Positions 3 to 27,371 are shown, counted from the first letter of the stretch. The stretch is 28,883 nucleotides of DNA from Candidatus Heimdallarchaeota archaeon AB_125 (GCA_001940755.1 MEHH01000005.1:1-28883), one strand, 5' to 3'. Made by a program: numbers and translations. The notes: generated from the sequence alone by a model not told the origin.

Positions 3-893
3 TCTGCACAAGATGTCGATGAAGTTTTGTGGATCGCTGACAATCATAATGTCACCATAACTACTTTTGGTGATATGATGCGAGTTCCAGGTTCCAAAGA
101 ATCTCTCTATCAAGCTCAAGGGAGAGGAGTCGATGTTCAAGTAATTTATGGGATTTCTGATGCAATTAAACTAGCGGAAGAAAATCCTGAAAAAGAGTTT
201 TTATTCTTCAGTGTTGGTTTTGAAACTACTTCCTGCGTAACAGCTGCTGAAGTTATCAGAACAAAACTTCCTAATTTTAGTATCTATGCTTCTCACAAAC
301 TTATTCCTCCTGCAATGGAGCTTCTTATGCAAAGAGATGATTTAGAATTTCAAGGATTTTTAGCTCCAGGGCATGTTTCTACAATCATAGGAGCTAAGCC
401 ATATGATTTTATTCCGGAAAAGTATAACTTTCCTGTTGCTGTGGCAGGATTCGAACCTGTTGATATCCTTCTTGGAATTTATGCTTTATTAAAACAGTTC
501 AATGAAAATACTTCGAGGGTTGATAACATGTATAAACGCTATGTTAGACATGAAGGCAATGTTGCAGCTCTGAAAACTTTGGAAGAAGCTTATGTTGTTG
601 CTGATGCTAGATGGAGAGGATTAGGAGTTTGGCCAAATACTGGACATGAAATAGCTGACAAATACAGTCACATTGATGCCAAGAAGAAATACGAAATCCC
701 TGAACTTGAAACTACAGATCTTCACAGTGGTTGTATTTGTGATGAAATTTTAGTGGGTAAATCCAAACCCCATCAATGTAAATTGTTTAACAAGGCTTGC
801 AGACCTGATCATCCAATAGGAGCTTGTATGGTTAGTCATGAAGGAACATGCAATGTTGCTGCTACTTATGAAGAGATAATTTGGGAAGATTAA
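3..893 (+). CDS. hypD: [NiFe]-hydrogenase maturation protein HypD, 5'-truncated by the window edge
   Basis: The frame is open from base 3, and the TTG at 27 is only an ORF-finder start. The translation carries HypD-type motifs: TFGDMMRVPGS, FFSVGFETTSC, and C-terminal GACMVSHEGTC. hypC lies directly downstream. Confidence 0.9.
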   Translation, partial: SAQDVDEVLWIADNHNVTITTFGDMMRVPGSKESLYQAQGRGVDVQVIYGISDAIKLAEENPEKEFLFFSVGFETTSCVTAAEVIRTKLPNFSIYASHKLIPPAMELLMQRDDLEFQGFLAPGHVSTIIGAKPYDFIPEKYNFPVAVAGFEPVDILLGIYALLKQFNENTSRVDNMYKRYVRHEGNVAALKTLEEAYVVADARWRGLGVWPNTGHEIADKYSHIDAKKKYEIPELETTDLHSGCICDEILVGKSKPHQCKLFNKACRPDHPIGACMVSHEGTCNVAATYEEIIWED

Positions 894-945
894 TTGCTAG
901 ATGAAAACAGTTAATTAATGAAGTAAAAATGGTGATGTGAGACTT

Positions 946-1167
946 ATGTGTTTGGCAATTCCTGGATTGGTCTGTGAGATAATAAGCGAAAAGAGAGTAA
1001 TGGTTGACATCACAGGTGTTAGAAGAGAAGCTGATACTTCACTCTTAGAAGAACCTCTTGATGTTGGTGATTATGTGTTAGTTCATACAGGTTTCATAAT
1101 TCAAAAACTTGATCCAGAACAAGCAAAAGAAGATCTCAAGCTCTGGGATGAAATACTTAGCAGTTGA
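946..1167 (+). CDS. hypC: [NiFe]-hydrogenase maturation chaperone HypC
   Basis: The ATG at 946 gives the canonical HypC N-terminus MCLAIPG, with the essential Cys at position 2. It is preceded by GGTGATG at SD distance. The ORF-track start at 937 (GTG) would add 3 residues ahead of the conserved Met-Cys. The product is about 73 aa, typical for HypC. Confidence 0.9.
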   Translation: MCLAIPGLVCEIISEKRVMVDITGVRREADTSLLEEPLDVGDYVLVHTGFIIQKLDPEQAKEDLKLWDEILSS

Positions 1168-1237
1168 ATTTTTCTCACAATTCCTTAAAGGAATAACGAA
1201 TAAGTTATATATATTATTTTGATTATTTCTTATTATA

Positions 1238-1921
1238 ATGGTACTCAGAGAAACCGATGCGAATGCTCTAATTTTGAGAAATTTCATAGATTTTTCAACT
1301 AAAACAAATCAATACTTCTTAACCAACCTAAATAAAACAGTACCAGATATTTTTGATGATATAGAGTGCATGGGTGAAGCTAAAAGCAGAGTAAATGCAA
1401 TTGAAGGGCTGAAGTTAGTTAAAAGAAGGTTTAAGACAAACAACATAGATATATCATATATCTTAATCTTAGCTGCAAGAGGATACAAATTTAGAAATAT
1501 TACAGACAGAGTTTTTCTTTGTGAAGAAAATGCGATATTCCCATCCTTTGAATCCTTTCCTCCAATAAAACCAAAAATGGCTCAAGATTTTGGAATCAAG
1601 ACTGCGATTCTAAAAGGATTAATCGAAAGCTTTGAAATTGAAAGTGATGAAATTGCTCAATCTATAACTGAATCAATACCTGAAATGCTTGAGAAATCCT
1701 ATGGTGTTCGATACACTGGAAGGTTTCTTTCTATTAATGAATGGATTGACCTCAAGGAAAAAGATGGAGAATGGACCTCAGAAGGTAACTTCAAACTAGG
1801 TGTTAATAATTTGACACCACAAATTTTTGGTAATCTATTAGTGTTGCAAGCTAGAGGTTGGTACTTACAAGAAATTCCCGAAAAATTCAAAGGAAACGAT
1901 TATCTTCTTATCAAGGGTTAA
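1238..1921 (+). CDS. hypothetical protein (227 aa) between hypC and the hydrogenase structural genes
   Basis: Long ORF with an ATG start, same strand as its neighbours, and an AT-rich promoter-like region upstream. I recognise no motif, Cys cluster or TM segment. Confidence 0.6.
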   Translation: MVLRETDANALILRNFIDFSTKTNQYFLTNLNKTVPDIFDDIECMGEAKSRVNAIEGLKLVKRRFKTNNIDISYILILAARGYKFRNITDRVFLCEENAIFPSFESFPPIKPKMAQDFGIKTAILKGLIESFEIESDEIAQSITESIPEMLEKSYGVRYTGRFLSINEWIDLKEKDGEWTSEGNFKLGVNNLTPQIFGNLLVLQARGWYLQEIPEKFKGNDYLLIKG

Positions 1922-2038
1922 TCATTCAATAAATAGATATTTGTTAAGATATTTACTTATTATAATAGCAACTCCCCAGCACAACCTTTTTTTATGACTG
2001 ATTCTTGATTAAACTAAAATGTTAAGAGAGGATTTCTT

Positions 2039-2566
2039 ATGAGTGATGCGCTCAAAGAATTAGAAGAAATTTTAAATGTAACTTTACCTGGAAACCTTGT
2101 TGAAGAAGTGGTAAAAGTAGAAGAAGGTCATTTCAACGTTTTTAGTAACGCAACAAATGCTTTTGAACTTATGAAAATACTGCGTGAAGATGCGGGTATT
2201 TATCACCTTACAACAATATCAGGTGTTGAAAAAGATGATGAATTCAACGTTTGTTATCATATACAACACAGAATAGAAGATGAATTTAGGGAAGTACCGA
2301 TAAATTTCACTGTAACTAAAATCGATAAAAATAAACCAAAAACTCCAAGTATGATTGATTTTTTTGTTGCAGCTGATTATTATGAAAGAGAAATTTACGA
2401 CTTTTATGGTGTATATTTTGAAAACCATCCATTCCTGCAAAGGTTAATCTTACCAGAAAGATGGCCAGATGATGTAAAACCAATGCGTAAAGAATATGGT
2501 TGGGAACAGATAAAAGAAATCACCATGAAGATTGCTAAAGAAGCTTTGGAGGAGGCTAAAGAATGA
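2039..2566 (+). CDS. group-4 [NiFe]-hydrogenase NuoC-like (30 kDa) subunit
   Basis: The translation has the NuoC/EchD/MbhK-type core ADYYEREIYDFYGVYFENHP...RLILPERWP. An SD (GAGAGG) lies upstream. The stop overlaps the next gene's start by 4 nt (ATGA at 2563-2566). Confidence 0.85.
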   Translation: MSDALKELEEILNVTLPGNLVEEVVKVEEGHFNVFSNATNAFELMKILREDAGIYHLTTISGVEKDDEFNVCYHIQHRIEDEFREVPINFTVTKIDKNKPKTPSMIDFFVAADYYEREIYDFYGVYFENHPFLQRLILPERWPDDVKPMRKEYGWEQIKEITMKIAKEALEEAKE

Positions 2567-3819
2567 CAGAACAATATCGATCTAGATTTAGAACTTTAAC
2601 TGATGGTAGTGATTCACCTCCTGGTGCAGATCATCATATATTTATCGGACCACAACATCCATGGGCAGAAGAACCAGCACACTTTATTATCCATTTGAAA
2701 GGAGAAAGAGTCGTTGAAGCTGATATCAGAATAGGTTTCAATCTCAGAGGGATTGAAAAAGCAATGGAAAATAGAACATGGAGACAAAACACCATGTTAG
2801 TTCCTAGAGCCTGTGGTATTTGTAGTGCTGTTCATCAAAATGTTTATGTTCGAGTTGTAGAGAAACTTGCAGGCGTTGAAGATCAAATATCCGAAAGAGC
2901 AAGATTAATACGTATGTTCAGCTTAGAAGCCGAACGTGTTCATTCGCATATTTTGTGGTATGGAATACTTGCACATGATGCAGGATTTGATACAATGCTA
3001 CACATCTCATGGAGAGATCGTGAAATTATCATGGACATTGTAGAGGACTTTAGTGGAAACAGAGTTAATCCAGCTTTGATGCTACCTGGTGGTGTTAAAA
3101 GAGACATTCCAAAGGACAAAGCAGATAAAGCACGACCAATGCTAAACAAATTGATAAAACAAGTTGAATATCATAAGAAGGTATTCACTGAAGAAGCTTC
3201 AATAAGGAATCGTTTAGAAAATGTCGGTGTTTTGACTAAGGATGACGCAAAGATAACGACACCCAATGGACCAACAGGAAGAGGATCAGGTTTACCCTTT
3301 GATATGAGAAAATCATTCCCATATGAATTATATGATAAAATTGATTGGAACTTGGTTTGTTATAACGAAGGAGATATCCTAGCAACTACTTTGGTCAGAA
3401 TTGATGAAACCCTAGAATCTTTACAAATGTGTAATCAGATTTTGGATCAACTTGAATCTACTCAAGGTGAATTGTTAGCAAGAGTCAAACCAAGAGTACC
3501 GGAAGGGTCCTATATGGCCAGAGGTGAAGCCCCAAGAGGTGAAGATATTCACTATGGTATTGCCAATGGTACAGATAAACCCGAGAGGTATAAAATCAGA
3601 GCACCATCATTAGGTAACATAGATGCTACACTAAAAAGAATGGATGGTGAATATGTGGCAGATATGCCAGTAATTCTGAGAAGCTATGATCCATGTTTCT
3701 CCTGTACAAACAGAGTTATGTTGATTAACGAAGTAACTGGAGAAAAAATAATCATGAATCAAGATGAATTTGCCAGAAAAGCTATAAAGGCCAAGAGATA
3801 CAATAGGCCATTTTTCTGA
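2563..3819 (+). CDS. group-4 [NiFe]-hydrogenase large (catalytic, NuoD-like) subunit
   Basis: N-terminal GPQHP...RGIEK...PRACGICSAVH contains the L1 CxxC Ni-Fe ligands (Cys84/Cys87, nt 2812-2823). C-terminal DPCFSCTNR contains the L2 CxxC (nt 3694-3705). At 418 aa the size fits Ech/Mbh/Hyc-type large subunits. Confidence 0.92.
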   Translation: MTEQYRSRFRTLTDGSDSPPGADHHIFIGPQHPWAEEPAHFIIHLKGERVVEADIRIGFNLRGIEKAMENRTWRQNTMLVPRACGICSAVHQNVYVRVVEKLAGVEDQISERARLIRMFSLEAERVHSHILWYGILAHDAGFDTMLHISWRDREIIMDIVEDFSGNRVNPALMLPGGVKRDIPKDKADKARPMLNKLIKQVEYHKKVFTEEASIRNRLENVGVLTKDDAKITTPNGPTGRGSGLPFDMRKSFPYELYDKIDWNLVCYNEGDILATTLVRIDETLESLQMCNQILDQLESTQGELLARVKPRVPEGSYMARGEAPRGEDIHYGIANGTDKPERYKIRAPSLGNIDATLKRMDGEYVADMPVILRSYDPCFSCTNRVMLINEVTGEKIIMNQDEFARKAIKAKRYNRPFF

Positions 3820-3831
3820 GGTGATAAAAAG

Positions 3832-4302
3832 ATGAAAAAAGTATTAGTAATGGGTGGAGAAGCACTAAAGAATCATGCAAAAGGACCTGTGACAAAACAT
3901 GTACTAAAGCAAATTTCTGATCATCCCCCACCAGAAGATATCAGAACCATTCCAAGAATCATTGAAGATAGATGTATCATGTGTGGAACATGTGTAAAAG
4001 TCTGTCCATCACACTGTTTGGAAATGGAAAAAGATGACAAAGAAAATGGAATGATATGGCTATTGAAACCTCAATGTATGTGGTGTGGTCATTGCCAAAC
4101 CTATTGTCCCGTTGATGCAATTCATATTGATAGAGATCCTAACTTGTCCGTATCTTTATTCTCATTTAATGTCAGACAAGACTATGAAATGCTTGTTGCC
4201 AAAGGCAGCTACAAAGGTGATGTAGCTGATAAGAAACTCCAAGAGCTAATCGACGAAGGTGGCAAGAAGATTAAAGAAATCGATGAATTCCGAGGTGCCT
4301 AA
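3832..4302 (+). CDS. 2x[4Fe-4S] ferredoxin-like subunit (NuoI-like) of the hydrogenase
   Basis: Two CxxCxxCxxxCP motifs are present: CIMCGTCVKVCP and CMWCGHCQTYCP. An SD (GAGGTGA) lies upstream. The gene sits between the large and small subunit genes. Confidence 0.85.
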   Translation: MKKVLVMGGEALKNHAKGPVTKHVLKQISDHPPPEDIRTIPRIIEDRCIMCGTCVKVCPSHCLEMEKDDKENGMIWLLKPQCMWCGHCQTYCPVDAIHIDRDPNLSVSLFSFNVRQDYEMLVAKGSYKGDVADKKLQELIDEGGKKIKEIDEFRGA

Positions 4303-4303
4303 A

Positions 4304-4771
4304 ATGGGTTGGTTGAAGAAATTTGGTGTAAACTGTGCAGTAAGATCTCCATGGATTATCCACATGAATGCAGGTGGATGCAATGGATGTGATATTGAAA
4401 TTGTAGATGCTTTAACTCCAAGACATGATCTTGAACAATACGGAATCACCCTTCGTGGTACTCCTCGTCAAGCTGATGTTCTTGTTATTACAGGACCAGT
4501 AACTGTTCAAGTAGCAGAAAGAGTTAAACGAGTCTATGAACAAATGCCTCTACCTAAATTCGTAGTTGCTGTTGGTAACTGCTGTACTACCGGTGGTGTA
4601 TTCCAGGAATGCCCATTTGTTTTAGGTGGAATTGATCATGTTCTTCCTGTAGATGCCTGGGTTTATGGATGTCCTCCAAGACCAGAAAACATTGTTGTAG
4701 CTGTTGCTACTTTGTTAGGTAAATTGAAAGAAGATCTTATTGGTATCGAGAAAAAAGAAGTTCCTGTTTAG
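4304..4771 (+). CDS. group-4 [NiFe]-hydrogenase small (NuoB-like) subunit
   Basis: SPWIIHMNAGGCNGCDIE ... GNCCTTGG ... YGCPPRP is the hydrogenase-type proximal-cluster Cys pattern. The in-frame ATG at 4304 (MGWLKKF) lies 1 nt after the upstream stop. The ORF-track start at 4259 would overlap the previous gene by 44 nt. Confidence 0.88.
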   Translation: MGWLKKFGVNCAVRSPWIIHMNAGGCNGCDIEIVDALTPRHDLEQYGITLRGTPRQADVLVITGPVTVQVAERVKRVYEQMPLPKFVVAVGNCCTTGGVFQECPFVLGGIDHVLPVDAWVYGCPPRPENIVVAVATLLGKLKEDLIGIEKKEVPV

Positions 4772-4778
4772 GAATAAC

Positions 4779-4807
4779 TTTTCCTTTTCTTTTTATTTTA
4801 TTTTTTA
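4779..4807 (+). terminator. oligo-T tract after the hydrogenase catalytic operon
   Basis: The sequence ttttccttttctttttattttatttttt follows immediately after the stop at 4771. Archaeal termination typically occurs at oligo-T. The tract lies in the 36-nt gap between convergent genes. Confidence 0.4.
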
Positions 4808-5845
4808 TTACCACTCTTTTGCTCTTTGTCTCAAGTCTTTCTCTACCTTTATCATATTTGGAAGAAAGGGGATTACATCCTCATCTAATCCTTGAAAATC
4901 ACTTTTAACTTGCATGGGATCAGATTCTTCAAATAGAATTCGATAAACCCAGTCAGTTAAGTCTGCTAATACTCTTTCGTAGAATAAATAAACTACAATT
5001 TCTTCATTAAGATTTGCAGATTCTCTTATTTCTTTGTATTTTTGTTTAAAAGAAGGAAAATTCTTCTGATTGAGATAGAACCAGATATCTTTTTCAAAAG
5101 GAGCAAAATAAGCACTGTCCCAATCTACTAAAAAGATCTCATCTTGTTTATTTAAAAGAATATTATGTCGGATTGGATCATTGTGACAAACCACATAGTC
5201 TTGAGGAGATTCATTTTTGAGATTTTGAGTGATTTCTTCTAGATATGTTAGTGATTGTAAAATATCATTCATTAATGGTGTAATTAAGTTCTTAAGCCTT
5301 AGAAATGTTTTATCTGTCGACTTTGTACAAGCTGCAATTTCTCTAAGACACAATAATAGATCGTCCTTAAATGATAAATCTAAGTTAAATAGAAATTTAT
5401 CTTGAAATTTAAGATATTCTGTGGAATCGTGAATTTGAGCTAATAATGCTGATATTTTATTTAAAAAAATAGTAGTTTTACTTTTTTTCTCTGAAGTAAT
5501 CTTACCTTCAATGTAATTCCATAGTACCATTTCAGCTTCCTGAAATTGCGATTTTAGATTTCCTTTAACAGTTTTAATAGGATAGGAAATATGTTTTATC
5601 CCTTGAGCATGATATAGTTGATGGACTACTTCTAACGAAAAATCAAGTTTATGATTTTCTTGATTTTTCAATCGAGAGGGAAAATATAACTTCAAAAAGT
5701 ATTTACCTTTCTCTTCTGTTGTTACAATGTATGAAGATGCGAATTCCCCCACTGGAACAAATTTTAAGTTTTTTACATTTATATTGTAAACATCTTGTAT
5801 CTTTTGTTTCAATTCCATTTTGTCAATAGAGGGCTCAGTCTTCAA
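4808..5845 (-). CDS. aminoglycoside/choline-kinase-like phosphotransferase (APH family)
   Basis: The catalytic-loop motif CHNDPIRHNILL (HxDxxxxN) and the metal-binding motif LVDWDSAYF (DxD) are present. The ORF-track start at 5845 is TTG; an ATG alternative at 5818 (MELKQK) cannot be excluded. Confidence 0.75.
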   Translation of the reverse strand: MKTEPSIDKMELKQKIQDVYNINVKNLKFVPVGEFASSYIVTTEEKGKYFLKLYFPSRLKNQENHKLDFSLEVVHQLYHAQGIKHISYPIKTVKGNLKSQFQEAEMVLWNYIEGKITSEKKSKTTIFLNKISALLAQIHDSTEYLKFQDKFLFNLDLSFKDDLLLCLREIAACTKSTDKTFLRLKNLITPLMNDILQSLTYLEEITQNLKNESPQDYVVCHNDPIRHNILLNKQDEIFLVDWDSAYFAPFEKDIWFYLNQKNFPSFKQKYKEIRESANLNEEIVVYLFYERVLADLTDWVYRILFEESDPMQVKSDFQGLDEDVIPFLPNMIKVEKDLRQRAKEW

Positions 5846-5877
5846 ATTGAATCACATCAATTAATTCTTCAGAAAAG

Positions 5878-7284
5878 CTATTTTGAATGTTGTGACGCTT
5901 CATCTTTTATTGACTTATTTCTGTTCCCTATGAAATAGTTAGTAAGATAGATTAAACAAACTGCAGAAATGATAGCAATTGATGTGAAAAGGAAAATTTT
6001 TGGTAAAACAAAACTCCAATCAATAGCTCCATTGACTTCATTTGAGTTAACGCTAATCGGGATGAAGCTTACTGTTGAAATTGATCTTGACAATGAAACA
6101 TAAAATCCTAAAGCACCAAGAGCCATTCCTCTTTGAGTAATTATTGCTTCTCTTGTCGTTCCAGTATTTACACCAATATAACTTGTCAGGCTACTTGCAC
6201 TGTAAATCATATAGACCACTATTAACCATGGCAAAGATTTCACATAGATGAAAAGAATCAACATACTAGATGAAATAAGTAATGTAAAGAAAATAGGTCC
6301 TTTATAACCAATCTTATCAACAATTTTCCCCAAATATGGTTTAAAGAATATTAGTACACCTGATGTAATCCATGCTATCTGTGCAACAGAATCATAAGGG
6401 AGTCCTTTAACTTCGGATACTAATATTGGCCAAAAAGCCGTTATAGTATATTCAAGAAAAGCTACAGTTAATTGTATCATATAAATAAAACGTAATTTCT
6501 TCTGTTTCGTTACTATAGCAAGAGACTTGAACATTGAAACAAAGGATATACCCAGTGCTTTCATTTTGGATTCTGTTTTTAGTCTCTCCTCTTTTTTGAG
6601 AACTTCTGGCATGAATAATGCCATACCAATTACACCAATGAGGGATATCCCTGCTCCCCATGCAAAAAGTATACGGAGTGGTGACAAAGTACTTACTATT
6701 TCTGGCATTATTGCTATGCTTTCGATTTGTAAAACTAATGTTTTATTAATGTGAAGGTTAGAAATTTTTAAGAGTAAAAATGCTAATAAAGCTCCTGATA
6801 TAGCCCCTAAATCAGTCCCTTGAAACAATCTTCCTTGGACTTCGCCAAGATTTGTATCTTCTTCAACATCTCCAATATATGCAAAAATTATTGGCCAAAA
6901 ACAAGACATTCCGATAGCCATGAAAAACATTGCCACAATTACTAAAGCCCAATGTGAAGATACAGCTAGAAAAAACAAACTTATTGTGTAAAAACTAATA
7001 CCTGCTATAAGTAATGGTTTTCTTCCAATCATTTGAGATAAGTTCCCCAATGGAACTCGTAGGAATAGCTGAGGAATATTCCTCAACGCAAAAATAAACA
7101 GTATTAGCCAAAAAACTGTATTTATGTTTTCAAGATGCAAACCTACATAGGACATGAAAATTGTCATCGAAAAACTACCAACTATACCTAGAAGTATGGG
7201 GGAAAGTCGTCGACGGTCATCTAAATACAACCTTGTCTTAACTCCATTTAGAGTCTTGGATAAAAGGTTGCTTTCACCACTCAA
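5878..7284 (-). CDS. MFS-type transporter
   Basis: The 468-aa protein is hydrophobic throughout, with about 12 predicted TM segments and a central hydrophilic loop (KKEERLKTESK). The start is a TTG. The first in-frame ATG would fall inside TM1, so a non-ATG start is likely. Confidence 0.7.
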   Translation of the reverse strand: MSGESNLLSKTLNGVKTRLYLDDRRRLSPILLGIVGSFSMTIFMSYVGLHLENINTVFWLILFIFALRNIPQLFLRVPLGNLSQMIGRKPLLIAGISFYTISLFFLAVSSHWALVIVAMFFMAIGMSCFWPIIFAYIGDVEEDTNLGEVQGRLFQGTDLGAISGALLAFLLLKISNLHINKTLVLQIESIAIMPEIVSTLSPLRILFAWGAGISLIGVIGMALFMPEVLKKEERLKTESKMKALGISFVSMFKSLAIVTKQKKLRFIYMIQLTVAFLEYTITAFWPILVSEVKGLPYDSVAQIAWITSGVLIFFKPYLGKIVDKIGYKGPIFFTLLISSSMLILFIYVKSLPWLIVVYMIYSASSLTSYIGVNTGTTREAIITQRGMALGALGFYVSLSRSISTVSFIPISVNSNEVNGAIDWSFVLPKIFLFTSIAIISAVCLIYLTNYFIGNRNKSIKDEASQHSK

Positions 7285-7448
7285 TATTTTCAGATCCTAT
7301 CTCTTGTAGGTATTTATAAGTTAGATTTTAAACATAATGGATTAAACATCAGAATCTCAAGGTTTAATCAAGGTTTGTCTTTAAAAAATTTCGTTTTCCT
7401 TTTCCACAATTTTAAAATAATCTCACAACATACTTGATATAGGTTCAT

Positions 7449-8144
7449 ATGTTTCCACATTCACCTCAATCAGCAGTACCACCAGATAAACTTGTTCAGC
7501 AAATGATAGTTCAAGCATTACAAGCTTTCTATATCAATGACCACGAAACTGGAGTATATTTTCTTCAGCAAATCAGAGCTAATCTACCTCGTTACATGTA
7601 TCAGTTAAATCCACAAATGAGAAATCTAGCTAAAGAAGTTGTTAAGTTGTTACAAGATGGAAGCTTAGTGCCAGATAGATCATCTGAGTCTGCAGAAGCT
7701 TCTGCAATGGATACTCACCCAGGATTGTCAGGTGAATCTAACGAATATAAGGCTCCAGCAGAAACAGTTAATCAAGAAATGCAACAACAAATACAACAAC
7801 AATCAGATTTGGTTGGCGCTCCTGAACTCACAGAAACTGATCTGGAAGGTCAAGAAGTTGATACTTCACAAGATATAGTTTTTGAACCCAAAACAGAATC
7901 GGTTGGAACTCCTGCAGAAGAAATATTCGCTCATCATCCAGAAACACCACCCCAACACCCAGAAACACCAATTACCGAACCCCCATATGAGGAAACTGAA
8001 GCTCCAAGAGGTTCATTACCTAGTGATTTTATCTCTGAATTATCTACAGCAGTAAGTACTGTAAGAGACAAAAAGAAGAAGAAGAAGAAGAAAGATGAAA
8101 AATTAGTTGGTTCAATGAATGAACTAGAAGATTTTGATTTCTAG
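7449..8144 (+). CDS. hypothetical protein: short helical N-domain plus acidic, low-complexity tail with a K8 tract
   Basis: ATG start and long ORF. Composition is E/Q/P/T-rich. A tandem HPETP repeat lies at nt ~7932-7970. The K8 tract is encoded by AAA(AAG)6AAA at 8070-8093. The C-terminus is NELEDFDF. Confidence 0.55.
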   Translation: MFPHSPQSAVPPDKLVQQMIVQALQAFYINDHETGVYFLQQIRANLPRYMYQLNPQMRNLAKEVVKLLQDGSLVPDRSSESAEASAMDTHPGLSGESNEYKAPAETVNQEMQQQIQQQSDLVGAPELTETDLEGQEVDTSQDIVFEPKTESVGTPAEEIFAHHPETPPQHPETPITEPPYEETEAPRGSLPSDFISELSTAVSTVRDKKKKKKKKDEKLVGSMNELEDFDF

Positions 8145-8599
8145 GCTTTTGGATTAATTACTTTGACTACTGTCCAATCCTGTTTAATTAAATGATCTAC
8201 AGCAATTTCCACATTTTCCATAGTTTCTTTTAATTTGTCTTTCAAAACTTCTTGTGGAATTGCAGAATACATATTCTTTATTCCACCATTTTCTAAAGGC
8301 TCCTTTTCCATAGTAATCAAGCCTTGTTTAATCATACTTTGAACTAGACGAACTGCTGTTGTACGATCTTTATTAACCCTATTTGCAATGTCCATAATTG
8401 ACCTTCTTTCTTGCAAAGCGTAGAAGTAGATATTCACATGGGTACATTTCAATCCAAATACAAAATCAAAAATTGGACAAACTTTATAGTTACACTCCAA
8501 GAATTCACATCTACAACTACCATGATCCAAGCTCTTGATTATTGTTTCTGGTAAATCAACCAAACAAGGTTGTGCTCGTTTTTCTTTTTTTACGGACAT
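8141..8599 (-). CDS. winged-helix (MarR/TrmB-like) transcriptional regulator with Cys-rich N-terminal region
   Basis: The segment SIMDIANRVNKDRTTAVRLVQSMIKQGLITMEKE fits an HTH plus wing. The first ~60 aa contain six Cys (PCL, CRCEFLEC, VCP, KCTH). The ATG at 8599 (MSVKKEK) is preceded by GAAGGGG at SD distance. The ORF-track start at 8626 is an upstream alternative. Confidence 0.65.
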   Translation of the reverse strand: MSVKKEKRAQPCLVDLPETIIKSLDHGSCRCEFLECNYKVCPIFDFVFGLKCTHVNIYFYALQERRSIMDIANRVNKDRTTAVRLVQSMIKQGLITMEKEPLENGGIKNMYSAIPQEVLKDKLKETMENVEIAVDHLIKQDWTVVKVINPKA

Positions 8600-8688
8600 T
8601 ACAATACCCCTTCGCATGTGTGACAAAAATACACAGTCTAATAAATCTTATGTTCTTACGAATTGCCAAAACAGAAGAATTTATATGG

Positions 8689-8707
8689 TGTGCAAATTAA
8701 TTACACA
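8689..8707. promoter_or_regulatory. imperfect palindrome TGTGCAAATTAATTACACA in the regulator/thioredoxin divergent intergenic region
   Basis: Seven of 9 symmetric positions pair. Related half-sites ATGGTGTGCA (8685-8694) and ATGGTGCACA (8722-8731) flank it. It lies 28-46 nt upstream of the trx ATG. Confidence 0.3.
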
Positions 8708-8734
8708 TAGATAAATCTATAATGGTGCACAGAA

Positions 8735-11679
<2,945 letters not shown>

Positions 11680-11683
11680 CTAA

Positions 11684-13810
<2,127 letters not shown>

Positions 13811-14076
13811 TTAGCCCAAAATGGGTACCAGATTTCTGCCATTTTACGGTTATTGTCGGGTTATTTCCCGAAAATAACATACTATAAAAAAATAAAGTTT
13901 ATCATTTAAAAATACATTGGTTGGCACTATTAAAAAGCCTAAAAATATGGTAAAGAAGCCATTTTAAGGCCTTCAATTAGATAATTGTTTAATTTAACAA
14001 GAGTACTACTTAATTCTTATGAAATTATAGTCTTTTTTTCTATAGAATTTCAGCTTATATTAAAAGAAGAAGTATT

Positions 14077-15402
<1,326 letters not shown>

Positions 15403-15554
15403 TTACTTAAAAAAGGCTATGTTTGTTGAGAAATTATTTATGTATATATTGTTAAAAATAATATGTAAATTAGTCAAATATGTCTTCAAAAAATCATTTC
15501 AAAATGCAATTGTGATAGAAAGATTTTTGGATAGAATATTTTACTGCAATGTAA

Positions 15555-16220
<666 letters not shown>

Positions 16221-16228
16221 TTTTGCAT

Positions 16229-16588
<360 letters not shown>

Positions 16589-16730
16589 TTAAACCAGAAC
16601 GATTCGAAGCAATATTGCTAATTTTTAAGTTTTGTGTTCAAAAAATGGAGAACCATCCAAGAACTGAATCTAATGCTGGATTAGGTCGGGATAAGGATTT
16701 TTGTATCACAAAAACTTATATCCATAGTAG

Positions 16731-17156
<426 letters not shown>

Positions 17157-17165
17157 AAATCTTTC

Positions 17166-17444
<279 letters not shown>

Positions 17445-17456
17445 TATATAGTCTAC

Positions 17457-17491
<35 letters not shown>

Positions 17492-17516
17492 AATAGGGAG
17501 ATTATAGAATTAACCA

Positions 17517-17600
<84 letters not shown>

Positions 17601-17653
17601 TTTTTATTTAATCGTTAAGGAACTGATTTTCTTTATCAAATCTCCATCTTTAA

Positions 17654-21088
<3,435 letters not shown>

Positions 21089-21213
21089 TCAAATGGGTTT
21101 TTCCTATAGTTTTGATTTTTATATTTAATCATATGTTATTTTGTTAACATTTTCGTCCAACTACCCACGATAAACCTTAAGAATTAGCTAATAATCAATA
21201 TCAATGTCGCGAC

Positions 21214-22719
<1,506 letters not shown>

Positions 22720-22720
<1 letters not shown>

Positions 22721-23220
22721 TGAGTTTAGTAATCATATATATATTCATGATTCTTGCGATTCTAGCAGCAATCTTTGCATTGGAATGCAGACGACTAATG
22801 TTCTCAATAATTGGTTTGATTGCTATGAATCTATTTCTCTGGGTATTGTTACTGACACTTAACGCTACATTTCTAGCGTGGGTACAACTCATAATATATG
22901 GTGGTGGATTTACAGCACTATTCGTTGTAGTTGTAGCTTTAACAGAAAAACAGAGAGATGAATCATTCGATTGGAAAAGATCTGTAATCGCTCTTGGTAT
23001 AGTAGCTGCACTAATGGGTGTAGCAATATGGGCAGTTACAGCTTCAGGTCTAAGTGTTACAATTGGAACAAGCACTATAGGGGATTCCCTACGTGCTCTA
23101 TGGAACGAAAGATTAACTGATTTGATACTACAAGCTGTTGTATTCTTCGCAACAACTGTAGGAGTTGGATCATTGTTTATACATCATAAGAAGAAACAAA
23201 AGAAGGAGGCAAAAGCATGA
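22720..23220 (+). CDS. NuoJ-like membrane subunit
   Basis: The 166-aa protein has about 5 TM segments, and the central WVQLIIYGGGFTALFVVVV resembles the NuoJ core. Its position between the A-like and K-like genes supports the call. The start overlaps the upstream stop by 1 nt (TAATG). Confidence 0.7.
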
Positions 23221-23531
23221 TAGAACAATTACACTTACTGATTCTTGGCATTGTCTTATTCGGTGTAGGCTTGTATGCATTACTTGGTAAAAGAAATATC
23301 ATCAAGATTCTTATGGGTATTGAAATAATGACAATAGCTATAAATCTGGTATTTATCTCATTGGGAGCCAACAGCACAAATGAGATGTTTACTCAGTTTG
23401 CACAGATCTTTCCGTTGATATCAATCGCTATTGGTGCAGCAGTACTTGCTGTAGGATTAGCAATAGCCATCAATAACTATCGTCACGCTCACAGCTTGGA
23501 TACAGATGAGATGGCTACATTGAAGAGGTGA
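23217..23531 (+). CDS. NuoK-like membrane subunit
   Basis: The 104-aa protein has 3 TM segments, with a membrane-embedded Glu in LMGIEIMTIAINL typical of NuoK/MbhG/MrpC. It overlaps the upstream gene by 4 nt (ATGA). Confidence 0.8.
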   Translation: MIEQLHLLILGIVLFGVGLYALLGKRNIIKILMGIEIMTIAINLVFISLGANSTNEMFTQFAQIFPLISIAIGAAVLAVGLAIAINNYRHAHSLDTDEMATLKR

Positions 23532-23537
23532 TAAAAA

Positions 23538-25373
23538 ATGGTACAAACAATAATACTATTCGCAATAATTTCTGTCGCAGTGCCTATAATTGGTTCTTTT
23601 CTATCATTACTATTAAAGAAATTCCCAACAGTTAGAGACTTCTTCAGTGTATCTACAATAGCAGTATCAGCAATAATGTCAATCTTGATATTTGGAACTT
23701 ATAGCGGAGAAACCAGTTATACCTTAGATTGGTTAAATTGGGGAAGCAATAAATCAGGAATTTTCCTTGATTCTTTGTCTGTTATAATGGTACTAATAGT
23801 ATCGATTTTGAGTATGCTAATTGCATTCTTCTCAATTGAATACATGAAAGATGATGAACACAAAGCAAGATATTGGTTCTTCATTCAAATGTTTGTTGGA
23901 GGTATGCTCCTATTAGTTATAGCACAAGATTTGGTATTATTATTCCTTGGATGGGAAATAGTAGGACTTTGTTCTTGTTTCCTGATCGGTCACTACTTCA
24001 TGAAGAAGGGTGAAGAAGGAGAAAAACCTGCAAAGAGCGGAATTAAAGCTCTAATTATGACTGGTATTGGTGATGTTGGATTACTAGCATTCTTAGCTTG
24101 GGTTTATTACGAGAATAAGAAGCTTGGAATGAGCAATCCGTTACTCTTGGATACATCAACCCCACTTGGGGGAACTTTCCCAATTGTAATGAGCATTCTA
24201 TTACTCTTAGCTCCAATTACAAAATCTGCACAATTCCCATTACAATCATGGTTAAGTGCGGGTGATACGGTTGATATAGACGCAATGCAAGGTCCAACTA
24301 CAGTTTCAGCATTAATACATGCAGCAACAATGGTTAAGGCTGGTGTCTACCTAGTTGCAAGATTCTCACCCATCTGGGATAATGAGTTCTTCTACATTGT
24401 GTTAATGATAATCGCTGGAGTTTCATGTGTGCTTGCTGCATTCGGAGCATTAGTTACGACAGATCTCAAAAGAGTTCTTGCATACAGTACAATCTCACAG
24501 CTCAGTTACATGTTCCTAGCCTTTACAATTAGAGAAGATCACGGAGCTGGTTTAATCCCAGGACAAATGCATCTATTTTCTCACTCAATCTTCAAAGCTC
24601 TACTGTTCTTGTCAGCAGGTGCAATAATTCACTCTGTTGCAGAAGAAAGAGATATGAAGAAAATGGGTGGTCTCAGAAAAGAACTACCCTGGATCTACGG
24701 ATTCATGCTAATCGGTGTTCTAGGTTTAATGGGTATACCTATTATAACAAACGGTGGTTATTCGAAAGAGATGATAATAACTGCTGCTTATGAAGCTGCA
24801 GTTGTTGATGGAGCTGTTATGCACTGGTTTACATTCGCTGTAGGTGTTTTAGTAGCGTTCTTAACTACTCTATATGCTGCAAGAATGTTCTTGATGATCT
24901 TCCATGGTAAGAATCGAGGAGCTCATGTACATAAACCAAAATATATCATGAGAATAGTTGTAGGTATTTTAGCAGTTCTAGTAGTAGCTACTGGTTTCTT
25001 AATTGAAGGTCCAATTAGCAACTTCTTCACTGGAGATACAGGATATAGTCTAATACACGTTGTATTAGTTCCATTCTTATGTGCAATTGGTGCAATCATT
25101 CTTGGTTTAGGCCTAGCTTATCTGTTATACGGCAAAGGACAAACTGAAGTAGGCTTTGTTGAAAACATTGGTGTTTTCAGAGCTCTTAGAACCTATGTAG
25201 CAAACGGATTCTACATAGATCATTTCTACAACAAAGTATTTGTCAAACCAGTTTTCTGGATTGGTAAGAAACTATCATTCTTCAAGACTGGTAAAATTAA
25301 CTGGAACATGATCTTTGGAGGAGTTGTAGCGCTATTTGTAGTAGTGATTACATTAGTGGTGGTGATTGTCTAA
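23538..25373 (+). CDS. NuoL-like antiporter-type subunit (Mrp/MnhA-D family) with C-terminal extension
   Basis: The translation has GWEIVGLCSCFLIGHYF, TKSAQFPLQSWL and HAATMVKAGVYL motifs. At 611 aa it includes a long C-terminal segment ending in one more TM, comparable to the NuoL lateral-helix arrangement. An SD (GAGGTGA) lies upstream. Confidence 0.88.
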   Translation: MVQTIILFAIISVAVPIIGSFLSLLLKKFPTVRDFFSVSTIAVSAIMSILIFGTYSGETSYTLDWLNWGSNKSGIFLDSLSVIMVLIVSILSMLIAFFSIEYMKDDEHKARYWFFIQMFVGGMLLLVIAQDLVLLFLGWEIVGLCSCFLIGHYFMKKGEEGEKPAKSGIKALIMTGIGDVGLLAFLAWVYYENKKLGMSNPLLLDTSTPLGGTFPIVMSILLLLAPITKSAQFPLQSWLSAGDTVDIDAMQGPTTVSALIHAATMVKAGVYLVARFSPIWDNEFFYIVLMIIAGVSCVLAAFGALVTTDLKRVLAYSTISQLSYMFLAFTIREDHGAGLIPGQMHLFSHSIFKALLFLSAGAIIHSVAEERDMKKMGGLRKELPWIYGFMLIGVLGLMGIPIITNGGYSKEMIITAAYEAAVVDGAVMHWFTFAVGVLVAFLTTLYAARMFLMIFHGKNRGAHVHKPKYIMRIVVGILAVLVVATGFLIEGPISNFFTGDTGYSLIHVVLVPFLCAIGAIILGLGLAYLLYGKGQTEVGFVENIGVFRALRTYVANGFYIDHFYNKVFVKPVFWIGKKLSFFKTGKINWNMIFGGVVALFVVVITLVVVIV

Positions 25374-26872
25374 TGAACCCATATCTATCCTTAATACTGA
25401 TAATACCAATTGCTGGTGCAGGGCTTTTAGCACTGTTTGAGCAATTGAAGAAATTCTTAGCAAAATGGAAAATCTGTACTGATTGTATAAACCACGCTTT
25501 AGCAAGTATAATTGCTTTAGGAGTCTTTGGACTTTCTATTGTTGCAGCTTTCGTACCTTCATTCTTAACATGGCTTGAATCATTTTATAATGGAGGACTA
25601 CTAAGATTTGGACAACTTGAAGCAGTGCTTATTGCAATATTCAGTTTCCTTGTCTTGATGGTAACAATATTCAGTGTTAACTACATGAAAGGCAAAAATG
25701 GAATTGGTTACTACTATGCTCTAATCTTTACACTTCTCACTGGTTTAAGTACTGTAACTATGGCAAACAACTTCATCACACTATTTGTTGGATGGGAACT
25801 GTTTGCTTTAAGTGCATATGTACTTGTATCTTTTGAGAGAGCAAAGAGAGGTGCAGTAGAAGCTTCAATGAAATACTTCATTATGTCTACTGCTGGTAGT
25901 ATGCTAGTTTTACTTGCTACAGCTTTAACTTACGGAATTTATGGAACTGTTGAATATACAGCTATTGCTGCATCTACAACTCCAATTGCCGCTATAATCA
26001 TGGCATTGTTTGTTGTTGGTTTCGCAGTAACAGCAGCTATGCTTTTACTAAATGCTTGGTTGCCAGATGCCCACAGCTCTGCCCCATCAACTATTTCAGC
26101 ATTACTTTCTGGAATCGTTGTTAAAGCAGGTGCAATAGGTATCTATAGAACCTTATACTTTGCATTCTCCCCAGCTGCGTTAAGTGCTGCAACTGGAGCA
26201 GTTGTCTCCTGGTTAGGTATCTTGACTATGATTGAAGGAAATTTCTTAGTATTTGCTCAATTCAAGCGTAAAGATATTGTTGATTTCAAGAGAATCTTAG
26301 CTTATTCAACAACAGTACATCTTGGTTACATCATACTAGGAATCGGATCCATGGCTCCTGATGCTTTAGGAGTTCAAGCTTCAGTATTCCACATACTAAC
26401 TCATTCTCTAGGAAAGGGTGGTCTGTTCTTGCTCAGTGGAGTTTTGATTACAGCACTTGGTTCAAGAGATATGAGAAAGATGATTGGTATTGGAAGAAGA
26501 TCACCATTTATTGGTATAGTCTTAACAGTTGGTTTACTTTCATTAGGAGGTATTCCTATAACTGCTGGATTTGCATCAAAACTAATGGTAATTCTTGCAA
26601 CATTCAATGGTGGAGCTAACGCTGTTAATCCTTTAATGTTTATCAACAGTATTCTGTTAGTAATTATGGCTATCATTAACTCCTTGCTAGCTTTAGGAGG
26701 ATATCTGTATATTCTAAAGAAAATGCTCTTTGATGAACCAGATGGTGAAGATACAGGCAAGATAAAAATACCAATATTCCAAAAAATAGCTTTAGCTATA
26801 ATTGTAGTTGTTCTAATAGTTCTTGGTTTATGGCCAGATCTTATTGTGAGCAAAATAGCACTTATAGTATAA
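25373..26872 (+). CDS. NuoN/NuoM-like antiporter-type subunit
   Basis: The translation has GWELFALSAYVLVSF, a MKYFIMSTAGS-type motif, LPDAHSSAPSTISALLSGIVVKAG and KRILAYSTTVHLGYI. The start overlaps the upstream stop by 1 nt (TAATG). Confidence 0.88.
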   Translation: MNPYLSLILIIPIAGAGLLALFEQLKKFLAKWKICTDCINHALASIIALGVFGLSIVAAFVPSFLTWLESFYNGGLLRFGQLEAVLIAIFSFLVLMVTIFSVNYMKGKNGIGYYYALIFTLLTGLSTVTMANNFITLFVGWELFALSAYVLVSFERAKRGAVEASMKYFIMSTAGSMLVLLATALTYGIYGTVEYTAIAASTTPIAAIIMALFVVGFAVTAAMLLLNAWLPDAHSSAPSTISALLSGIVVKAGAIGIYRTLYFAFSPAALSAATGAVVSWLGILTMIEGNFLVFAQFKRKDIVDFKRILAYSTTVHLGYIILGIGSMAPDALGVQASVFHILTHSLGKGGLFLLSGVLITALGSRDMRKMIGIGRRSPFIGIVLTVGLLSLGGIPITAGFASKLMVILATFNGGANAVNPLMFINSILLVIMAIINSLLALGGYLYILKKMLFDEPDGEDTGKIKIPIFQKIALAIIVVVLIVLGLWPDLIVSKIALIV

Positions 26873-26990: not shown

Positions 26991-27362
26991 ATGATTTTAG
27001 AAATAATATCAGGAGTTTTTTCAATTAGTGCAGGTACTATAACTGCTTTACTCTGGATAATAGTGCTTCTAAAAAAGAAAGCCAACTTGTTTATTGAACA
27101 TCCGTTTGAAAGATTATTTCATATCACAGCTGAGTTTATAATGGCGACTCTAGCAATTGTTGGAGGGATTGCATTAATACTAGAGTTAACTTGGGGATTG
27201 TATATGTTCTTATTTGCAATGGGACTAATTTTATATGCAATAGTGAATGCTATAGGAATTTATGGAAAAAAGGAGTACACATTACTACTTGTTGTACTGG
27301 TTTCTTCTGCAATAATAACACTTACTCTAGCAATTGTAGATTTTGTAATATTAGTATTCTAA
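26991..27362 (+). CDS. small integral membrane protein (about 4 TM), unknown function
   Basis: ATG start. The 123-aa product is almost entirely hydrophobic. A ~118-nt gap and a T-tract separate it from the nuo-like operon. Confidence 0.55.
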   Translation: MILEIISGVFSISAGTITALLWIIVLLKKKANLFIEHPFERLFHITAEFIMATLAIVGGIALILELTWGLYMFLFAMGLILYAIVNAIGIYGKKEYTLLLVVLVSSAIITLTLAIVDFVILVF

Positions 27363-27371
27363 ATACTTACA

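Follow-up and report, generated by a model that had tools for sequence, protein, structure and literature searches.

An inversion parts two modules that probably encode a single complex-I-like group-4 [NiFe]-hydrogenase in a Heimdallarchaeaceae archaeon

Complex-I-like group-4 [NiFe]-hydrogenases of subgroups 4j, 4m, 4p and 4q have been described for Heimdallarchaeia, with Heimdallarchaeaceae listed among their hosts, as enzymes in which a NuoBCDI arm, lacking NuoEFG, has a NuoD whose [NiFe] site looks active, and in which the membrane arm is shorter than in complex I (Appler et al. preprint, bioRxiv 10.1101/2024.07.04.601786). Unlike the present analysis, that preprint contains no discussion of gene order, of a two-module organization or of a split. 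Here we analyse a stretch of 28,883 nt (MEHH01000005.1:1–28883, in full the window) that encodes one of these published enzymes: like them, it has a NuoBCDI arm, [NiFe] ligands in NuoD, NuoH/A/J/K, and an antiporter-like set smaller than that of complex I. The genes lie in a peripheral-arm (catalytic) module at 3–4771 and a membrane-arm module at 17681–26872. Very probably, these are two separately transcribed modules of one membrane-bound hydrogenase, set apart by a single inversion of ~22.6 kb.

The closest described system is the 'MBH' (membrane-bound hydrogenase) of Ca. Heimdallarchaeum aukensis and endolithica (Wu et al. 2022, PMC8813620), an orthologue with a large subunit 80% identical to ours, the same ten subunits and one copy per closed genome. 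The arrangement differs from that in the window: in the closed genomes (L029/L030; loci are cited by L numbers) the modules are convergent neighbours with only hycI and an LRR gene between them, and hypC, orf227 and hypD are scattered upstream. More distant is a Hodarchaeales locus (L041), which has the same subunit types (large subunit 47–48% and NuoH 37% identical) and an adjacent hycI, but forms one contiguous operon in canonical nuo order (B-C-D-H-I-J-K-L-N), with a small unannotated open reading frame (ORF), perhaps nuoA, in front of it and with hyp genes not interleaved. The nearest solved large subunits are those of the Pyrococcus furiosus MBH (6CFW) and Escherichia coli formate hydrogenlyase (FHL; 7Z0S), enzymes sharing the logic of ferredoxin- or formate-driven H2 evolution with ion translocation. 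A HycE-like C-terminal extension on the large subunit and the presence of a HycI protease gene recall the E. coli enzyme, and the membrane arm departs from that of P. furiosus in being Nuo-type, with NuoA/J/K in place of the Mrp-like MbhA–G set and two antiporter-like subunits. Cyanobacterial and chloroplast NDH-1 is a further ferredoxin-dependent complex-I relative without NuoEFG, although it reduces plastoquinone rather than protons and has no [NiFe] ligands in its NdhH. Scattered ndh loci (ndhCKJ, ndhAIGE, ndhH, ndhB and ndhD/F) encode it, showing that split encoding of such complexes has precedent.

Gene content was checked by ORF listing with Pfam and NCBIfam scans, which bear out the initial annotation of the first locus as hypD-hypC-orf227 followed by NuoC-, NuoD-, NuoI- and NuoB-like genes, all on the plus strand. 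The 5′ end of hypD (3–893; PF01924, E 4e-111, profile positions 61–350 of 351) is cut by the window edge; the full-length form, seen in L004, has 367 residues. It is followed by hypC (937–1167; PF01455, E 5e-23) and by orf227 (1238–1921), a conserved soluble protein of no assigned function between hypC and nuoC. The NuoC-like subunit (2039–2566; PF00329, E 9e-27) overlaps by 4 nt the NuoD-like large subunit (2563–3819), which matches both PF00346 (Complex1_49kDa, E 5e-59) and PF00374 (NiFeSe_Hases, E 1e-12), holds both [NiFe]-binding motifs (RACGICSAVH and DPCFSCTNR) and finds its closest solved structures in MbhL (6cfw_L, E 6e-71) and HycE (7z0s_E, E 1e-58). The NuoI-like subunit (3832–4302; Fer4 families, top NCBIfam match the FHL iron–sulfur subunit) has two CxxCxxCxxxCP motifs, CIMCGTCVKVCP and CMWCGHCQTYCP, for two [4Fe-4S] clusters. 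The module closes with a NuoB-like small subunit (4304–4771; PF01058, E 3e-30; NF005012, 141 bits against a cut-off of 116) whose pattern GGCNGC...GNCC...GCPP supplies four Cys.

The second locus, also on the plus strand, stands overall as first described (hypE-hypF followed by NuoH-, A-, J-, K-, L- and N-like genes), with a weak match for NuoA and a last gene that cannot be separated as NuoN or NuoM. It opens with hypE (17681–18709; AIRS and AIRS_C) and hypF (18722–21088; Acylphosphatase, zf-HYPF, Sua5 and HypF_C domains), then the NuoH-like gene (21267–22316; PF00146, E 3e-66). The NuoA-like gene (22322–22720, its ATG at 22322 confirmed) scores 21.0 bits against a cut-off of 23.3 for PF00507 (Oxidored_q4, E 3.9e-4) and E 1e-3 for NF005022; its orthologues in relatives match Oxidored_q4 just as weakly. 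NuoJ-like (22720–23220; PF00499, E 4e-13) and NuoK-like (23217–23531; PF00420, E 2e-22) genes lead to two antiporter-like subunits, both with PF00361 matches. The NuoL-like one (23538–25373; TIGR01974, 439 bits against a cut-off of 407.5) carries a C-terminal extension corresponding to the lateral helix region, into which the alignments with its top PDB matches reach (E. coli NuoL 3rko_L, residues 11–576; Thermus thermophilus Nqo12, 54–595). The other (25373–26872; PF00361, E 1e-53) is NuoN/M/MrpD-like, a set that NCBIfam does not separate. Downstream, orf123 (26991–27362, plus strand) encodes a small hydrophobic membrane protein with four predicted helices, annotated DUF8058 in relatives. Inside each module, genes overlap or sit less than 15 nt apart.

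These subunits place the enzyme in group 4: both large-subunit metal motifs, a four-Cys NuoB, a two-cluster NuoI, a NuoC-like subunit, and NuoH-like and antiporter-like subunits are all present, and enzymes of groups 1–3 match the large subunit only at E ~1e-17 or weaker, which serves as a proxy for the placement. The features of the published Heimdallarchaeia type are all found as well, namely NuoBCDI without NuoEFG, an H/A/J/K membrane arm, fewer than three antiporter-like subunits and a Heimdallarchaeia host. Respiratory complex I does not fit, given that the four Cys ligands are kept, NuoEFG are not present (neither in the window nor in the 20-kb flanks of relatives) and there are only two antiporter-like subunits; nor does a Pyrococcus-type MBH (group 4d), since neither module contains ORFs for Mrp-derived MbhA–C or MbhF and both NuoA and NuoJ/K are there instead. 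Because the large subunit is nearest MbhL and HycE but NuoL is nearest the NuoL of complex I, the architecture joins a hydrogenase head to a membrane arm of Nuo type that has two antiporter-like subunits. The host is a Heimdallarchaeaceae (Asgard) archaeon. In protein searches the best matches of the large subunit and NuoH are metagenome-assembled genomes (MAGs) of this family at 64–100% identity; for the large subunit the closest homologues are 75–94% identical, followed at 44–48% by Hodarchaeales and assorted bacteria, and NuoH homologues rank in the same pattern. All close homologues come from Heimdallarchaeaceae or Heimdallarchaeota MAGs, Ca. Heimdallarchaeum among them.

For gene order in relatives, 45 loci were fetched by contig look-ups, a genome-collection scan and a metagenome scan, and the window's proteins were mapped by tblastn on the loci gathered at that stage, the mapping being repeated as the loci grew. 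Across ~40 related loci, every arrangement has the two modules as separate transcription units, and they are never one operon in the Heimdallarchaeaceae family. The initial annotation had named synteny in related genomes as a check; run here, it finds the modules to be immediate neighbours in at least 12 genomes (convergent in at least 10, two of them closed, and tandem in 2) and split in others, 13–20 kb apart in ~14. The accompanying premise that such genes are normally a single operon is true of the Hodarchaeales locus and fails for Heimdallarchaeaceae, whose modules are separately transcribed even when adjacent. Neighbouring modules are 0.05–1.6 kb apart in relatives with large subunits 80–91% identical.

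The convergent layout (type A; L009, L015–L020, L032 and the closed L029/L030) reads hypD-hypC-orf227-nuoCDIB(+), orf123(−), nuoN-L-K-J-A-H(−), hypF(−). The tandem layout (type B; L001 and L035) reads hypF-nuoHAJKLN(+), flavodoxin(−), hypD-hypC-orf227-nuoCDIB(+), and is type A with the catalytic block alone flipped. In the split layout of the window (type C; shared by L004–L007, L010–L012, L014, L021 and L031, and also by L022–L024 and L027), nuoB is followed by (APH−) MFS− and, further along, gyrA−, gyrB− and MiaB−. A variant (type C′) keeps orf123 beside nuoB with the membrane module distant (L008; L028 with L036), and in one other split (L002 with L039) the modules are on the same strand ~20 kb apart. 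The outgroup L033 (64% identity) is tandem-like, with membrane-arm genes not found within 9 kb; an archaeal signal recognition particle (SRP) RNA gene (L033 6159–6469, minus strand; Rfam 101 bits) occupies the place between hypF and hypD where type B has nuoHAJKLN. Two lineage-specific insertions were also seen, of ~2.2 kb between hypD and hypC (L010 6164–8393) and of ~4.5 kb between nuoB and the MFS gene (L021 12204–16719). A metagenome scan with the MFS protein returned two near-identical loci only, and on an 18-kb contig reached through P0277 the MFS–APH pair does not adjoin nuoB.

In the window, hypE starts 12.9 kb and nuoH 16.5 kb beyond the stop of nuoB, the second value matching the gap of about 16.5 kb given at the outset. 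This 13–16.5-kb separation is the product of a single ~22.6-kb inversion, not of an insertion. Relative to type A, the block 4808–27362 (22.6 kb), running from APH through gyrAB, the 5S-like element and tRNA-Ser to hypEF-nuoHAJKLN-orf123, is flipped. Its first breakpoint (4772–4807) is a T-rich stretch on which nuoB and APH converge; type-A nuoB adjoins orf123/DUF8058 instead. Its second (27363–27371) likewise separates convergent genes, orf123 and an adenine glycosylase gene, the latter adjoining APH in type A. Both breakpoints fall in tiny spacers between convergent stops, and the genes are intact. Three of the loci (L019, L040 and L044) tile one 345-kb type-A contig (JAUVXV010000004.1), which reads hypDC-orf227-nuoCDIB(+) / orf123(−) nuoN..H(−) hypF(−) hypE(−) ... 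MiaB(+) gyrB(+) gyrA(+) Trx(−) TrmB(+) orf(−) MFS(+) APH(+) / adenine glycosylase(−). On L040, the membrane module keeps the upstream neighbours that it has in the window (gyrB, MiaB, orf215, DUF5752, YccF, a tRNA gene, hypE and hypF), which suggested that types A and C differ by a flip of the whole APH-to-orf123 block. An APH–adenine glycosylase junction was predicted for type A before it was looked up, and was then found, as MFS(+) orf141(−) APH(+) followed by two adenine glycosylase genes (both −); the window is therefore type A with 4808–27362 inverted.

In the ancestral layout the modules would have been convergent neighbours, and the breaks would have fallen in the nuoB/orf123 and APH/adenine glycosylase spacers. 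We infer that the adjacent state is ancestral from a neighbour-joining tree of nuoCDIB, which places the window's type-C clade inside type-A lineages and has type A also basal in L029/L030. Other lineages show different inversions. The pair L028 and L036 has its own breakpoints, at orf123/nuoN and between two adenine glycosylase copies that now flank the inverted block; L008 carries a larger inversion that also flips a DUF1684/RNase_T/acetyltransferase block; and in the L022–L027 clade APH lies outside the block. The adenine (3-methyladenine) glycosylase gene is tandem-duplicated at the inversion boundary on type-A L044 (13000–13943), and inverted copies are present at L028 12719–13171 and L036 15677–16129. 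Such inverted copies are a plausible recombination substrate for the inversion in the L028/L036 lineage.

The initial annotation had offered, as one of its explanations, an ancestral contiguous cluster split by rearrangement or insertion. Rearrangement has proved right, in the form of an inversion, with ancestral adjacency argued from the tree above. Foreign or mobile DNA inserted between the halves of a contiguous operon is highly improbable: although a tRNA-Ser gene sits at the edge of the second locus, tRNA genes being common integration sites, and L021 and L008 carry extra DNA beside nuoB, the intervening genes are core housekeeping ones (gyrAB, MiaB-like, 5S-like RNA and tRNA), type-A relatives have the same genes in the same order on the other side of the membrane module, composition is uniform at 32–38% GC, and the far junction that an inversion leads one to expect was found. 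Still harder to credit, to the point of being negligible, is a metagenomic mis-assembly in which the contig was wrongly joined at a repeat. The window probably does come from a MAG, and both breakpoints are short AT-rich spacers, yet long repeats were not found at the junctions, and the orf123–adenine glycosylase side recurs in L037. Four independent assemblies (from JGI, ENA and Logan, of different samples) share the nuoB–APH junction and an identical large subunit, so that the junction is not an assembly artefact; it is present in at least 10 species-level MAGs, and the window's layout is shared by the further species-level MAGs L010, L011, L014 and L031, and by L024 with L037.

As the initial annotation proposed, the two loci very probably encode the soluble and membrane arms of one complex. 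Their subunit sets are exactly complementary (B, C, D and I against H, A, J, K, L and N), and the hyp maturation set is shared out between them, hypD and hypC on one side and hypE and hypF on the other. An assignment to different complexes, with nuoCDIB on another anchor and nuoHAJKLN working with another peripheral module or as an Mrp-like antiporter, is very unlikely. It can draw on the modules being separate transcription units in every arrangement found, on the repeated reshuffling of their positions and on NDH-1 as a precedent for modular exchange of antiporter-like subunits, but it sits badly with their immediate adjacency in so many relatives and, to our knowledge, NuoH/A/J/K have no role apart from the NuoB/D pair in the complex I, MBH and FHL structures. 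In the protein searches, the homologues with a Heimdallarchaeaceae label fall into one orthologue group for NuoH and one for NuoD, and closed Ca. Heimdallarchaeum genomes are reported to hold one membrane-bound hydrogenase only (PMC8813620). Pairwise identities of NuoD against NuoH, NuoL and NuoN across 13 genomes correlate at r = 0.75–0.80, as high as within modules, evidence that carries little weight, since the same would hold for any pair of co-inherited genes. Of the earlier suggestion that the modules are regulated separately and may be used combinatorially, separate transcription is the family norm, and combinatorial use found no support. In a bolder version, the two-operon split, each operon with half of the hyp genes, would be functionally meaningful, the arms being expressed and assembled independently and the membrane arm acting at times alone or with another partner, so that the at least 3–4 independent inversions across Heimdallarchaeaceae would reflect selection on uncoupling rather than neutral rearrangement; we regard this as unlikely.

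Several points weigh against reading the window as one enzyme parted by one inversion from an adjacent ancestral state. A repeat search found no inverted repeats linking the two breakpoints, only low-complexity T-rich matches; the neighbour-joining tree is without support values; the outgroup at 64% identity is tandem-like and without nearby membrane genes; the single gene set is taken from closed genomes of relatives at 80% identity; and electron donor and translocated ion are assigned by homology only. With the enzyme class already published and the split an ordinary inversion, the locus is less remarkable than the first reading implied, and the puzzle reduces to one enzyme and a simple inversion. 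It adds a footnote to the evolution of complex I by module joining, as Heimdallarchaeaceae keep two arms in two operons that have been re-oriented repeatedly and Hodarchaeales have a single operon in nuo order. For annotators the warning is that a tally of 'complete MBH operons' will overlook the enzyme in about half of the genomes of Heimdallarchaeaceae.

Judged from the homologous MBH, FHL and complex I, the electron donor would be reduced ferredoxin or a flavodoxin encoded beside hypD. Electrons would enter at the NuoI-like subunit with its two [4Fe-4S] clusters and move on via the NuoB cluster to reduce protons to H2 at the [NiFe] site. NuoH/A/J/K would relay the energy to the two antiporter-like subunits, which would translocate H+ or Na+. 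The flavodoxin gene lies directly upstream of hypD on the opposite strand and moves with the catalytic module in every arrangement (L004 6281–6841, L001 6308–6859 and L009 6472–7020), making a dedicated electron donor possible. A second flavodoxin gene, near YccF in L036 and L040, is absent from the window. The large subunit ends in a tail of 34 residues after DPCFSCTNR (3718–3819), starting where MbhL ends, and every layout has a HycI-type protease gene with the cluster, which fits such an extension; in this genome it lies upstream, ~2.2 kb from where the window begins (L004 4662–5195). The large subunit probably needs C-terminal processing.

Two companion genes travel with the modules. orf227 is at the same position in every Heimdallarchaeaceae relative (38–100% identity), with two similar (L/I)LxxRG(Y/W) motifs and 35 invariant residues; Pfam, NCBIfam and PDB searches gave no match, and a single-sequence AlphaFold2 model (pLDDT 32.9) was unusable and set aside. 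It could serve in maturation, in regulation or as an additional subunit. A homologue of orf123 adjoins nuoN or nuoB in at least 14 relatives, going with either module according to the inversion breakpoint, and is a candidate accessory membrane subunit.

Between the modules lies a second finding in its own right, more surprising than the hydrogenase split, probably more novel and perhaps of greater consequence. A 5S gene had been listed here, and as stated this does not hold: Rfam gives none in the window at gathering score (38 bits for RF00001), only two minus-strand half-matches of 19 and 17 bits. Minus-strand 17263–17391 aligns with the 3′ portion of the 5S model (AAGUUAAG ... GUACUG ... UGGGAA) and ~17214–17255 with model positions 9–51 (CCAUAG ... 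CCCAUUCCGAAC), an order that puts the 3′ half of 5S upstream of the 5′ half. An element 78–86% identical as aligned occupies the same spot in five relatives (L040 5191–5422, L036 5519–5748, L037 4014–4214, L033 1528–1691 and L039 219–366). Drawn as a permuted structure, it has a new 11-bp terminal helix, an extra hairpin, a helix II that joins both pieces, helices V and IV with a GAGA loop, a helix I closed by a UNCG tetraloop, and a helix III with loop C. In this structure 93.5% of cells are paired, against 29–43% in slid registers, and 22 of the 49 pairs show changes on both sides (shuffle mean 8.5, with 0 of 500 shuffles reaching 22; slid registers 0–5). A TATA-like box (17404–17411) stands 29 nt upstream of the first paired base and a T-run follows the last, both read by eye.

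The swapped half-matches and the covariation strongly support a circularly permuted 5S rRNA gene at ~17196–17382 (minus strand). An SRP RNA had been considered for this GC-rich RNA since L033 has one nearby; the window has no SRP match and the element matches 5S halves. Nor are these two 5S pseudogene fragments, as helix II pairs both pieces with compensatory changes. For the closed Heimdallarchaeum genomes, Wu et al. reported that 5S 'could not be predicted' (PMC8813620), a failure that the permutation likely explains. Permuted 5S has been reported in organelles (PMC4267664), and in the searchable literature we found permuted 5S in organelles only and none in archaea. As far as that literature shows, the gene would be the first outside organelles, and its host lineage stands near the origin of eukaryotes.

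The remaining intervening genes agree with the earlier listing of a kinase, MFS transporter, regulator and thioredoxin, gyrBA, methylthiotransferase and tRNA. In order, they are an APH kinase (−), MFS (−), orf231 (+), a TrmB-like gene (−), thioredoxin (+), gyrA (−), gyrB (−), a MiaB-like gene (−), orf219 (+), DUF5752 (−), YccF (+) and tRNA-Ser(GCT) (+). Read by eye, TATA-like boxes and T-runs lie upstream of nuoC, nuoH, orf123 and the 5S-like gene. The window's gyrA (9169–11667) is without an intein. In L014 (~17766–19440), L024 and L028, the gyrA match stops ~120 codons from the N terminus and ~1.3 kb of extra sequence precedes gyrB, which suggests that an intein sits at the classical active-site position of GyrA.

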